This document shows positions 43,701-49,700 of a DNA stretch of 64,000 bases, piece after piece. Source of the stretch: a virus (Duplodnaviria; Heunggongvirae; Uroviricota; Caudoviricetes). Position numbers: made by a program. Numbering within the stretch: the first letter of the stretch is position 1; the number at the start of each line of letters is the position of its first letter. The DNA lies in the IMG/VR virus record IMGVR_UViG_2651869782_000025; one strand, written 5' to 3'.

Positions 43701-46700
43701 TGGTCAGAGATACCTGGCCTGGTCTGGACACAGTGCCCGTGTCGGAGCCGCGCGAGATATGGCCCGCGCCGGAGTTTCAATACCGGAGATCATGCAAGCT
43801 GGTGGCTGGACCAATGTAAATATTGTCATGAACTATATCCGTAACTTGGATAGTGAAACAGGGGCAATGGTGCGCCTGCTGGAAGATGGCGATTAGCCAT
43901 TAACGCGTAAATGATTGCTCTAATTCTTTGATGTTTATGGTGGCATATGAGAAAGGATTTCAACATCGACGGAAAATGTGTAGTGCTGTCTGTAAGCACT
44001 AATATTCAGTCGCCAGCCGTCATTGTCACTGTAAAGTTGAGCGATAGAATGCCTGATATTGACTCAATATCCGTTGCGTTCCCTGTCAAAAGTATGCGTA
44101 GTGCTGAACATTTCGTGATGAATGCCACCGAGGAAGAAGCACGGCGCGGTTTTGCCAAAGTGATGTCTGAGTTTGGCGAATTTTTGGGGCACGTTGACAA
44201 AGCCCTCTCAATCAGTTCAGCAAGGTCCAAAGCATTAACAGCTTCCATGATGAAATAAAAAAAAGCCTGGCAAGGAGCCAGGCTGCACAAAAGAGCGGGT
44301 TTGTATTCCGCATCCAATCAATCAAGAAGGAGTATAGCACACAGGCACTGAAGAGAAAAAATGTGATTATCGATAAATGAAATGCCTATAATTGCTCTAA
44401 TTTATTGCTATAATTGAGCCGCAGTTTTTGTCAACTACGAAGACGTGCCATTACTTAACTCCTTGACATCATAGGCGGCCATTAGGCCGCCTTTTTTTTG
44501 ACCATATGAAAACAATCGAACAAAAAATTGAACAGTGCCGCAAGTGGCAGAAGGCAGCCAGAGAACGAGCGATCGCTCGGCAACGGGAAAAGTTGGCTGA
44601 TCCGGTCTGGCGAGAATCTCAATATCAGAAAATGCGGGATACTATCGACCGCCGTATCGCTAAACAGAAAGAGCGCCCACCAGCCAGCAAAACGCGGAAA
44701 AGCGCGGTAAAAATAAAATCTCGTGGCTTGAAGGGGAGAACACCAACGGCGGAGGAACGGCGCATCGCCAATGCTCTTGGCGCTCTCCCCTGCATTGCCT
44801 GCTATATGCATGGAGTAATATCTAATGAGGTGTCTCTGCACCATATCGCCGGTCGTACCGCGCCGGGTTGTCATAAAAAGCAATTGCCACTTTGTAGATG
44901 GCACCACCAGCATGCAGCACCGGCTGAAGTAAGAGCAAAATACCCCTGGCTGGTCCCTGTTCATGCCGATGGGGTGGTTGGAGGCAAGAAAGAATTCACC
45001 CTGCTGAACAAGTCAGAGATGGAGTTACTGGCTGACGCCTATGAGATGGCAAACATCATGCACTAATAAATATATTATTTTTAATGATAAATGATTGACA
45101 GCTGACAAGTGACTTCAGTCAGAATCATCACACGCCCGGTACGGATGGATCCCTTTTCAAATATTCCATGGACGGCACAGTCTAAGTACCGGGCGCTACC
45201 TTCAGTTGTATTGCTAAGCCGCCGCTGGTGGCTTTTCTTTTTTGTAGGGGGCGCTATGGATAAGAAAATATGTGTTGTGTCGATGAGCGTCGGCAAACCG
45301 GCGTCAATGACTGCTGCATGGATCAACAACGAGCTGATAATGGCTGAGCGGATCAGCTACCCTGAACGCCGCCGCGATATGGAACTCCAGTTGCTGCGCG
45401 AATTGCGTGAGAAAGAGGAAAAAGGTTTTATCGTGCTGGTGGAAGAGGAAAACAGCTTTATTACCGGTCGAGTTGGCCAGCGTGTAAGGTTGCGTGATCC
45501 CTTCATGAACGGCAGACCGGTACTGATTGAAGCAATGCAGATTTACAAGGAATTGGAACGCCAAAAAGCGATCAAGTTACCGCGCAAGGAATCTGGCAAA
45601 TACATCCTCCACCAAAGCATCTTCGATTCCGAACACGATAAAAAAGGCGATGAATTTTTCAACATCAACTGGAGCGAAATAACGACAGAGCATGTTCTGA
45701 CGTTACTATGTTGCTTTGCGACGGAATACAACAACGTTGCCAGCGCCGACTACATCAGGGCAATGGCTGGAGAAGTTGAGGCACGCCAGGAACCATCGTT
45801 ACTAAGCCCTCTGATTAACATAATTCGCGGAACCCAAACACTGGCACAAAAACGGGTGCCTAAAGGAGAGTTAACTGGAAAAGGAAATTATCTATAAACG
45901 TCAATGCATTAGGGTATACTTCTCCATAGAACTATAAGTAAATGGAGTAAGTAATGAGCGAATATGTTGAGTTAGCATACGCTGCCGCTACAAGCAGGCT
46001 TTGTCTATTTACCGGGACTGGCTTTTCAAAGGCAGTCTCGAACGGTGAAGCTCCAACGTGGAAGGAACTATTAAAAAAAGTTTGCAGCAAAGTTCACAAT
46101 GCCAAAAAGTTGGAAGACACGTTATTTCCTGATGATAAACCACCAGCACTGAGTCTTGAAGAAGCCGCACAAATACTATCTTTGAAGCTCAATATTGAGG
46201 GTAAGTCGATTTATGATGAAATTGTTGACATCATATCTCCAATTCAACTTGGAGAAGACATATCAAATATAAAAGACTTTTTCCAAAAAAACTCATTCCG
46301 TGTCATTACAACAAATTATGACAAGTTGGCTGAATGCTTGGTTGGAGATGAAAGTGTACAGTCTATCACGCCCGGCCTGCCAATTCCAAAGTATCCATCC
46401 AAGGTGAAAATATATCATGTTCATGGTTCTATTGATTCGCCAAAAAATATGATTGTCACTTCAGATGATTACTTCAGATTTATAAATTCCGATACTTATT
46501 TTTCACGAAAACTTAGTACGATGCTGCATGAAAATACAGTTGCGATATTAGGGTATTCTTTAAGCGACACAAATCTTAAAGCAATTATAAATGACTATAA
46601 AAAATTTTCGAAAAATAATGCCCTGTGCTCTAATATCTTTTTGATATCTCGCAACAAAGTAAGTCAAGACATGAAGGATTATTACTTCTATTGCTTTGGT

Positions 46701-49700
46701 ATAAGGGTAATTGACAATACAGAAATAGATTGTTTCTTTAGTCGATTAAGTTATAAGATGTCTCTCATTAAAGACATCATTGAAAGAGCGCGTGAAAATA
46801 TCAGAAAAGTTGTTTCGGGGGCTTATACTTATAAAGATGAATATCTTGAATTAGAGGATTCATTTTATCAAATTATATCATCAATTATATCGGAAGGTTT
46901 AGATTGGAATGATGATAAAGTCGTTTCTCTTTTCGAAAGGATAATAGAAAAAAAGCGAAAGTTAACAAGGAATGACGGAGCGTGGGAGCAATATGAACAG
47001 TTGGCAAAATGGCTTATATATTTTGGAAGCATCATAGAGGTTAGCAATACTAAGTATGAAAAAACATATTTAGACGCAGTTGAATACTCGATGAGTCATA
47101 TGAGTAAAGAAAGGACTTGGGGAGTTTCTTGGTATGCTTACAGAGCTTGGGAAACACGATGGCCTGCAATAATTGCCTCAAATAGGTTAATGATAAAAAA
47201 CCACATTGAAACATTAGGCACCTTGAAGGACGCCAACCTTATAGTTAAGAATATAGTGTAATTGTGGTCGATAAAAATTTATCGGGCAGATAAAACTGCC
47301 CGATAAATTAATCAGCATTCAGGAGCAATGCGTTATCTATGATGATCTGCTCCCATTCTTCGAATGCCCGGTCACGGACGCCCTGGGGAACGCTGTTAGT
47401 TTTGAAATCGACGACCGTACGCCATTTCCCGTCCGGACGGTACATGCGCAGAGCTTTACTTCCCCCTTCCCTGCGCACCTCAACGTTATGCTTGTCAGCA
47501 AACTCTTGTAATGCTCGTAGCGTCCCATGCTTTACTGTGTAGTATCGCTTTTTCAAGTTTTCTCTCCAGCCTGTGCCAAGGCTTCAACTTCCAAATCGTA
47601 AGACTCAAACTCATAGTCCTGGTCGTCAACTTCTTCAGGCACTGGCAGTAAATGCCAGGCTGAGTATATCTGACCATTATCAAAACGCTCCTGGCTGTAG
47701 AGCGTCGCGGCTATGAGTGTTAGCGCAGGGCGGTCATAACGGTAAATTTTGCGAACGTCACGGTCAACGAGACGACCGAAATTACCATAACCGCGCTCAA
47801 GTAATAATTTTTTAATTTCCGGCCAGTATGGACCATAGTTGCGGTACAGGCGGGGATTTTTCAGTAATCACCCGCGTAGTCCCGACAGGAAGAAATCAAC
47901 GTATTCGTCTTCTGTCTTTCCTAACAACGCCGTACGCATTACCGCCTCAAGATATGTTTATTGTATCAGATAGTGTGGCTATATTATCCGACGCTCGGCG
48001 ATCTGGGACTGAAACAGAGCAATCACATTCATCCGCTACAGTATAGCTCTGCTCAACAATCAGTTGAGCGGCATTCTCGTTAGTATTCTGGGCTAACACA
48101 TTGACACATCAGTGTTGTTCTGAAATGAGCGTATCACCTCTCTGCAATTGGACAAATTCAGTAAACCACTACAATCTTCAAGGCTTTGAAGTTTTAGATT
48201 GTTCATTAGTCAGAGCCTGTACCTATTTGTCTAAAATTCAACCTATGTTAACATTGAACTGAACATATCAAAATCAAACAATTACACAAATTGATGTACA
48301 GGCTCATTAGCACCTGAAGAATCAGAGGACAAATACGCGGTAAAGTTTATGCTTTATAACATGGTGATTGTTGCATTTATCGTAACTATCCCGCTACCGG
48401 TATCTCCGCGTATTTTCATTGTAAGAGGCTTGTAGTCCCCTGATCCAAAGGGAGGAACCATGTAGTCTATTGGTTGTCCAATTGGTATATTAGGCATTCC
48501 CAGACCTTGTATTTCCACATTATACTCTCCATCGGACATTACCTGGAATGTTAGTTTGGCTTTAATGGTTTCGTTATCTGAACTGTTAACAGCATTTAGT
48601 GCAGTAATTGCTGTGCAGGTGTTACCAGTAGTTGCCATGCACGACAATTGGCTGTCTTTGAAATTCACATTTACAGCATGGTTGTTGATCGCGGTATATG
48701 TAATTACGAGTTGATTGCGAATATTAACGGTGTGATTAGTAGTATCGTCGTCTGAGCCATATTCCCACTGGTCATCAATATTTACGGTGAACGTCCCATC
48801 TAACGTTTCCGTCGTGGTAAAAGGACGTAGTTTTATGGCGACTCCAGGTCTATAACTATATCCTTTTTTTACTATGCCAGCACCTTGTACACCGTTGTTA
48901 TCGTATTTTGCGTATCCCAGCTCTATACCTCCAGCGTTATATCCAATTTCTGCTATATACGATGAATTGCCAGTAATCGGTGTTTTGTTTCCCAGTATTC
49001 CAGAGTAAGTATTTTTGTTGTTCGTGTATGAAGATAACCCCATATATATCCTGTCAGCTCGAGAGAGGGTGTACTCATAGGTGAACTCGTTCCCTCTGAC
49101 GCAGTCCCAGATCGACATTGTTTTTGTCGTGGGATCTCCATTAATCCATTGCCCGCGAGAGTTAGTGTAACTTCCTTGTATATAAATGGATGTAGGACAC
49201 ATGAGCGATCCAGCGTGGCTGGATAGACTGGTAAGCAGTATTGCTATAGATATATATTTGGTCATTCTTGGCAGTCTCATTGTTGATTTGTAAATTTTTA
49301 TACAGGCAAAGCGCTCTTCAACTGCCCACGATATCCATCGTGCCGCATGATGTTTCTTCCGCTAGAGAACAATCTCTTCAGTCCCTCTTCGGGCCAGTTT
49401 CTCAAGTCGCTGCTTGTTTTGTGCATAGCACTATCCTTGTACTCTCGTTGCATAAAACTACACACCGAGCTAGTCAATCCGCGCTCCATACGACTGACCT
49501 ATGTTTTATCCGAATGGCATTATCCTCAAAACAGTGACAGCACGCGTAGCGGTTTGCGCCCTGCCCGGCGGTTCGGGAAAGCTCATTCTTCCGTAGCACC
49601 GATATATTTCTGCAAGTCATATTCCTAATGTGATGTTTGCATTCTAACGCGCCGGAAAAACACTCTGCGTTATCCCAGCCCTTTGTTCCCTTTATTCCTG

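Follow-up and report, generated by a model that had tools for sequence, protein, structure and literature searches.

A 435-residue SIR2 protein in the mat-lxc slot of a P1-like phage-plasmid as a candidate single-gene NAD+-depleting defence system

It is firmly established that SIR2 proteins deplete nicotinamide adenine dinucleotide (NAD+), and SIR2 systems made of one protein are already known. The gene examined here encodes a 435-residue SIR2 protein and lies in a 64,000-nucleotide (nt) stretch of the virus record IMGVR_UViG_2651869782_000025 (the window, in what follows), a P1-like phage-plasmid in which the gene is cargo positioned precisely between the backbone genes mat and lxc. We consider it probable that this protein is an autonomous, phage-triggered and NAD+-depleting abortive-infection system, in which the C-terminal domain would serve as sensor or as autoinhibitor. 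Among named systems the nearest precedent is sole-Sir2, a single protein of about 440 amino acids (aa) which converts NAD+ to adenosine diphosphate ribose in vitro, and a homologue of which, without linkage to CRISPR, protects Escherichia coli against phages T2 and T4 (CRISIS preprint, bioRxiv 10.1101/2024.12.27.630466). Sole-Sir2 was defined by its place between cas3 and cas5c in type I-C operons, with a downstream SRU, and its Sir2 domain is C-terminal, behind an N-terminus that does not resemble DSR2 (bioRxiv 10.1101/2024.12.27.630466). By functional analogy the best comparison would be DSR2, since DSR1 and DSR2 are also encoded by single genes and likewise place a SIR2_2 NADase domain at the N-terminus, ahead of an alpha-helical repeat region. 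From the same genomic slot comes CapRel-SJ46 of the P1-like phage SJ46, a validated single-protein anti-phage system which senses a capsid protein (PMC9712102).

The original prediction, made from sequence alone, had read at this locus an AT-rich gene for a 435-aa protein with the SIR2 hallmarks in their proper order and a helical C-terminal part which carried no recognised motif and did not look like a SLOG domain, and on all these points the analysis agreed with it. The open reading frame (ORF) is intact, lies on the plus strand and starts with ATG, and its product is 99.8% identical to WP_240752873.1, annotated as 'SIR2 family protein'. The motifs LFTGTGFS, TTNYD and HVHGS occupy residues 18-25, 119-123 and 155-159, and Pfam SIR2_2 matches residues 117-252 with 84.1 bits against a cutoff of 24.5. 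GTGFS, TTNYD and HVHGS are invariant in 40 of 40 homologues, including the putative catalytic residues N121 and H157, which align with the TTNYD and MHGD motifs of ThsA as equivalents of its N112 and H152. A profile of the 40 homologues, compared with solved structures, retrieved ThsA, DSR2, KomC and the SIR2 subunit of KomBC, in every case through the N-terminal half. Comparison of the structural model with solved folds gave scores of 22 for KomC, 20 for SeThsA, 15-17 for the SIR2 domain of Avs5, 16.8 for human FAM118B, 12 for the SIR2 protein of Nezha and 9-12 for classical sirtuins. Both Pfam and solved structures point to a SIR2 fold. Judged on this model, the nearest solved folds are those of the anti-phage NADases KomC, ThsA, Avs5 and Nezha SIR2, and several of the top structural matches have been described as helical or filament assemblies. 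RefSeq names homologues of the protein 'SIR2 family NAD-dependent protein deacylase', in accordance with an ordinary NAD-dependent deacylase which would modify host or phage proteins without depleting NAD+. We regard this as very improbable: no CxxC zinc module was found in the 435-aa sequence, where classical sirtuin deacylases have a zinc-binding CxxC...CxxC module, and there was no match to the classical SIR2 family.

The C-terminal part of about 180 aa is all-helical and was modelled with confidence as an alpha-solenoid. It matches no family in Pfam, NCBIfam or PADLOC, and comparison of its predicted fold with solved chains gave no specific homologue, DSR2 included. An exhaustive phmmer search with this domain alone recovered 77 of 1.84 billion representative clusters, and in every full-length match tested it stood behind SIR2_2. 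Stand-alone C-domain proteins were considered and rejected, since the short matches are truncated gene calls starting inside the last SIR2 strand. Family members are uniformly 431-445 aa long and share 50-62% identity with the query in Gamma-, Beta- and Alphaproteobacteria; Firmicutes (Cohnella, Furfurilactobacillus), Actinobacteria, Treponema and Methylovulum have members which have diverged further and are 440-480 aa long. The two-domain architecture of about 434 aa is uniform across phyla, at about 434-456 aa when Proteobacteria, Firmicutes, Actinobacteria and Treponema are taken together, and this indicates that the protein is not a truncated fragment of a larger, multi-domain system. About 29 members are found on viral contigs and many in prophages, and phrog_7567 is a full-length match.

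Among named systems, the protein is not a member of ThsA, DSR1/2, Nezha, Kongming, Lamassu, Avs5/SPARSA or PDC-S25. It is, as had been predicted, much shorter than the DSR-type proteins (435 aa against about 1000-1260 aa), whose NCBIfam models gave 26.2 and 22.6 bits against a cutoff of 1400 and matched the SIR2 core only, as did the PADLOC Dsr models; the C-domain has no detectable sequence similarity and no specific structural similarity to DSR2. Sole-Sir2 is likewise a single Sir2 protein of similar size, but its domain order is the opposite, and the two families, compared by published description only, may or may not be the same. No Cas gene occurred among the 25 commonest families listed for the flanks of about 55 loci, in which Acinetobacter, Desulfobacter and Treponema were included and rare cases are possible. 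KomC is highly similar in fold, but it is a bare SIR2 protein of 264 aa, whereas the 435-aa protein has an additional domain of 180 aa. KomC acts with KomA, KomB and a nucleotide-derived signal (10.1101/2024.12.20.629578), and neither KomA (deaminase) nor KomB (HAM1-like) was a neighbour in the scanned flanks. Unlike ThsA of type I Thoeris, the protein has no SLOG or Macro domain by Pfam, PADLOC or fold comparison, and the absence of a Thoeris partner from the original reading was confirmed, because the cassette holds no second gene. Nezha (SIR2-HerA) differs in that the cassette contains no HerA and there is no conserved neighbour. LmuA of Lamassu aligns only over residues 13-241 (positions 14-238 of 433), without a conserved LmuB SMC neighbour, and Avs5/SPARSA differ because Pfam gives SIR2_2 alone, with no fused STAND NTPase, and no short prokaryotic Argonaute (pAgo) lies in the scanned flanks. 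The best PADLOC match (E 6e-27) is PDC-S25, an unvalidated single-gene SIR2 candidate, but it covers only residues 100-259 against positions 127-289, that is 163 positions of a 517-position profile, and the C-terminal halves are unrelated; a literature search on its function yielded one incidental mention and no function.

SIR2 takes architectures other than this one in Rousset 2022 and Vassallo 2022, which mention it only as STAND-SIR2 and as the Sir2/HerA-like PD-T7-2, and a domain-centric screen (Nucleic Acids Research, NAR 2026) left out single-gene systems. A paper on NAD depletion in Vibrio cholerae was rejected as a precedent, as it concerns Nezha (SIR2-HerA), and a full-text search with five RefSeq accessions of SIR2 alleles returned no paper. 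Of the suggestion that this is an uncharacterised single-gene system, the second part is supported, as no conserved partner was found at 86 loci, and the word 'uncharacterised' may be too strong in view of the sole-Sir2 preprint. The protein is best classed, as far as its sequence goes, as a minimal, predicted SIR2 NADase-type defence in one protein whose C-terminal domain is new.

As to whether the protein acts alone, no conserved partner emerged when ORFs of 70 aa or longer and up to 5 kb away from the gene were clustered at 59 loci, where the top family was a generic response regulator/kinase at 9 loci, nor when ORFs of 40 aa or longer were taken from within 1.5 kb at 86 loci, 25 viral contigs included. 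The sole recurrent neighbours in the latter set were P1 backbone genes at 15 P1-like loci; at the 71 non-P1 loci no neighbour family was present at more than three loci, and those loci were mutually related. No Pfam domain occurred in more than five of 107 immediately flanking genes. In the window itself, none of the scanned neighbouring and large ORFs encodes a TIR, HerA, STAND, pAgo or SMC protein (small ORFs across the 64 kb were not exhaustively covered), which agrees with the earlier claim that there is no TIR, HerA, pAgo or STAND partner nearby. An orphan effector could nevertheless be imagined, a ThsA- or KomC-like NADase which is not self-contained and responds to a signal that diffuses to it or to a partner, such as TIR/ThsB, a nucleotide-modifying enzyme, HerA or SMC, whose gene lies on the chromosome or on another element. 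This is suggested by the closest folds, KomC and ThsA, which both need a partner or signal, by the PADLOC models of ThsA and LmuA, which match the SIR2 half, by the one ThsB-like TIR gene among the 107 flanking genes, and by an invariant aromatic cluster in the C-domain which could be a ligand pocket. It is unlikely, however, given the missing SLOG/Macro domain and the lack of a conserved partner at 86 loci from several phyla, and a lone cassette of 1.4 kb moving between unrelated hosts and elements is hard to square with a specific partner in trans.

The contexts of individual family members are diverse, and several of them fit a mobile defence gene. In E. coli chromosomes the gene lies at a prophage edge adjoining the integrase. 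In a metagenome-assembled genome of Treponema sp. (locus record 5819-11613) a 33%-identical member separates hsdS from hsdR in a type I restriction-modification (R-M) operon, on the same strand and with gaps of 26 nt and 68 nt, and in Halomonas the gene is part of an island with HNH, HSDR_N and DUF4145 genes, where a DUF87 gene, not recurrent elsewhere, lies 2.6 kb off with three genes between. Defence genes among the flanking ones include type I R-M, dGTPase, AbiD, PD-T7-1, PD-T7-5, HamB, NERD-UvrD and the one ThsB. In Acinetobacter, Rodentibacter, Methylovulum and Furfurilactobacillus the gene is a lone insertion amid housekeeping genes; in Methylovulum psychrotolerans (locus record 6001-8359) a divergent member is accompanied by a PIN toxin-antitoxin-like pair and a DUF433 gene, all of them inserted within an operon for NAD-dependent formate dehydrogenase/Complex1_51K.

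The boundaries of the cassette were determined by comparison with phage RCS47, whose mat-lxc junction is empty: homology of the backbone ends at window position 45893 and restarts at 47308, so that everything between is cargo. The G+C content falls to 0.30-0.39 within gene and cassette from 0.47-0.52 in the flanks. The cassette consists of a leader, the SIR2 gene and its own hairpin, with no space for a second gene, a noncoding RNA or a structured RNA. The leader and the first 86 or so coding nt are about 84% common to divergent alleles. The gene had been described as bracketed by mat and a bidirectional terminator. This holds for mat (stop at 45897) and for a strong hairpin, which folds at -23.6 and -23.1 kcal/mol on the two strands (z -6.8 and -6.35), and needs correction in one respect, as a U-tract follows the hairpin on the minus (lxc) strand only. 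Sequence comparison assigns the hairpin to the cassette and shows it to differ from that of RCS47.

P1 itself carries the res and mod genes of EcoP1, a type III R-M system, between mat and lxc, as the original prediction had stated, and a survey of this interval in about 700 plasmid records with the ref-mat...lxc backbone found a slot of variable cargo: SIR2 alleles, RelA/SpoT, RelA/SpoT with DUF4145, GNAT, YaaC, PIN, DUF2971, EAL, insertion sequence elements, or nothing. In phage SJ46 this RelA/SpoT cargo proved to be CapRel-SJ46 (373 of 373 residues and 833 bits to PDB 7ZTB), which strengthens the significance of the position. CapRel-SJ46 occupies the identical slot in the same orientation and also joins a toxic enzyme to a C-terminal regulatory or sensor domain in one polypeptide (PMC9712102), a role which for the C-domain described here is a proposed one, but its enzyme is a toxSAS tRNA pyrophosphokinase and not a SIR2 NADase. 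In pO26_98E11_1 (locus record 2561-3865) a 58%-identical SIR2 allele has mat on one side and a type III res gene on the other, which indicates that SIR2 and res/mod can share the slot. SIR2 cassette DNA is present in 134 of 5,426 complete E. coli genomes (about 2.5%), with 135 of its 137 places on plasmids, nearly always P1-like phage-plasmids. The variety of cargo, with EcoP1 R-M and CapRel-SJ46 among it, indicates that the mat-lxc interval is a hotspot of defence cargo, and the uncharacterised cargos are candidate defence genes. In the literature on P1-like hotspots and defence we found no account of the mat-lxc slot or of the SIR2 gene.

The same neighbourhood could be read as a sign of a selfish function of the element, in which the protein would be an addiction or exclusion toxin, serving plasmid stability or acting against rival plasmids and P1-like phages, or a counter-defence enzyme, encoded beside the Dar anti-restriction genes, with NAD-derived immune signals as its targets. 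The bearer is a low-copy phage-plasmid, the gene lies beside lxc, ulx and, in related elements, anti-restriction genes of the darB type, and the fusion of an enzyme to an inhibitory domain resembles the fused toxin-antitoxin CapRel of the same slot. We nonetheless hold such a function to be quite improbable, because many of the homologues belong to chromosomes and lie apart from plasmids or Dar genes, and because the slot hosts bona fide anti-phage systems. We know of no SIR2_2 protein with an anti-defence role.

The two domains differ in their evolution. Mean pairwise identity is 55% in the C-domain against 69% in the SIR2 domain, and for the nearest alleles 75-77% against 93-95%. At the DNA level four alleles from the P1 slot are intragenic mosaics, with about 100% identity over the 5' 350 nt or so and 70-80% in the 3' half, and other allele pairs from this slot have a near-identical 3' end, in some only the last 250 nt or so, with a differing middle. 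Synonymous divergence (dS) is 0.33-0.59 in the N-domain against 1.0-1.6 in the C-domain, and the ratio of nonsynonymous to synonymous divergence (dN/dS) is 0.05-0.09 and 0.13-0.22, respectively; these low ratios indicate purifying selection on both domains. Positive selection as the source of C-domain divergence was rejected, since dN/dS is below 0.25 in both domains and dS is three-fold apart, which fits better with mosaic recombination. The mosaic pattern indicates recombinational exchange of the C-terminal module, and a faster C-domain together with mosaicism is as expected, from the sequences, of a specificity-determining part.

The proposal of an autonomous abortive-infection system draws on precedent, as sole-Sir2 of about the same size has NADase activity and its homologue protects against T2 and T4, and on the defence NADases ThsA, DSR2, KomC and KomBC SIR2 being the significant relatives of solved structure. 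It draws further on the invariant motifs, the missing CxxC module, the uniform architecture, the lack of a conserved partner and the defence-type contexts, and on a slot that holds EcoP1 res/mod, CapRel-SJ46 and changing single-gene cargos. From these we infer NADase activity, a defence phenotype, a sensor role of the C-domain and oligomerisation, as follows. The gene would serve lysogenic conversion, as cargo of the mat-lxc defence slot. Its SIR2_2 domain would be an NAD+ glycohydrolase with N121 and H157 as catalytic residues, kept inactive by the alpha-solenoid in uninfected lysogens. Upon infection by a competing phage the C-domain would detect a trigger, which could be a protein of that phage or a ligand induced by infection, and the trigger would release the SIR2 domains or bring them together, probably as an oligomer or filament like those of the closest structural relatives. 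The resulting collapse of NAD+ would abort the infection.

Several observations weigh against this proposal. A scan of the 60-nt leader gave no convincing sigma-70 promoter, so expression in the lysogen may need read-through from mat, which would be odd for a lysogen-expressed defence; in P1 the mat region bears C1 operator annotations. The C-domain is fairly conserved, with about 40-50% identity across classes and an invariant set of Trp and Tyr residues, and this could equally mean a structural core or a small-molecule pocket instead of a sensor of phage proteins. No named, experimentally validated PADLOC system matches the full length of the protein, and about half of the chromosomal homologues lie amid housekeeping genes and not in recognisable defence islands.

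A more far-reaching extension can be offered only tentatively. The 180-aa alpha-solenoid might be a new compact infection sensor which directly recognises either a conserved component of phages or a metabolite induced by infection, and drives SIR2 filamentation, making the protein a minimal one of the DSR type; mosaic exchange of the 3' half might retune its specificity; and the mat-lxc interval might be an unrecognised hotspot of single-gene immunity, with the other cargos (YaaC, DUF2971, EAL, GNAT, PIN, RelA/SpoT with DUF4145) being new defences. We consider this combination possible and rather doubtful.

Positions of the cassette, its domains and the other features of the window are collected in Table 1. 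Besides the SIR2 gene the window contains a complete type I R-M system; the element thus carries at least two defence loci, of which the SIR2 one is a candidate. Next to lxc, the Ulx-like anti-restriction gene ulx is a pseudogene, with an in-frame stop at the position of R42 of RCS47 Ulx and a disrupted N-terminus. P1 backbone homology ends at about 48001, and a chaperone-usher fimbrial operon is found where relatives have darB. Elsewhere there are a TnpB of the IS605 family (OrfB_IS605 with a Cas12f-like TNB domain), an antirepressor with a KilAC domain, and a 565-aa protein with two DNA methyltransferase modules (PADLOC orphan and type II methyltransferase matches), presumably the homologue of P1 Dmt.

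Table 1. Coordinates of the SIR2 cassette, its parts and other features in the 64,000-nt window.
Feature	Coordinates	Strand	Remarks
Cargo cassette in mat-lxc slot	45894..47307	+	1,414 bp; from RCS47 homology breakpoints and GC drop
Leader	45894..45953	+	60 nt; GGAG ribosome-binding site 45944-45947, 6 nt ahead of ATG
SIR2 + alpha-solenoid coding sequence	45954..47261	+	435 aa; coordinates include the stop codon
SIR2_2 NADase-type domain	45954..46715	+	residues 1-254; GTGFS 21-25, N121 in TTNYD, H157 in HVHGS
Family-specific alpha-solenoid	46716..47258	+	residues 255-435; 8-9 helices (predicted); proposed sensor/regulatory module
Hairpin between convergent SIR2 and lxc	47276..47309	.	14 bp; GC core ATCGGGCAG/CTGCCCGAT at 47281-47304
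mat (maturation control)	45256..45897	+	upstream backbone flank
lxc (C1 modulator)	47308..47556	-	downstream backbone flank
Cre	42865-43896		backbone gene near slot
Ref	44506-45066		backbone gene near slot
ulx	47553-47996	-	pseudogene
Fimbrial operon	48001-54839	-	chaperone-usher
308-aa secreted protein	48354-49280	-	fimbrial operon; no Pfam match
DsbA-like protein	49692-50333	-	fimbrial operon
PapD chaperone	51097-51789	-	fimbrial operon
Usher	51782-54199	-	fimbrial operon
175-aa ORF	54312-54839	-	fimbrial operon
Type I R-M system	27802-33805	-	complete
hsdR	27802-30918	-	type I R-M
hsdS	31041-32246	-	type I R-M
hsdM	32243-33805	-	type I R-M
TnpB	59222-60430	-	IS605 family
KilAC-domain antirepressor	61142-62185	+	
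565-aa protein	8502-10199	+	two DNA methyltransferase modules

The merit of the finding lies in the compactness of the protein, its new domain, its prevalence on E. coli phage-plasmids and the hotspot in which it is situated. The survey of the slot provides a short and concrete list of further defence candidates. If its role is confirmed, the protein would be among the smallest self-contained SIR2 immune proteins, combining sensing, regulation and NAD+ depletion in 435 residues, and its small size would recommend it for studies of SIR2 NADase activation. P1-like phage-plasmids also spread resistance genes, and the SIR2 gene could therefore affect the outcomes of phage therapy and the competition between mobile elements.

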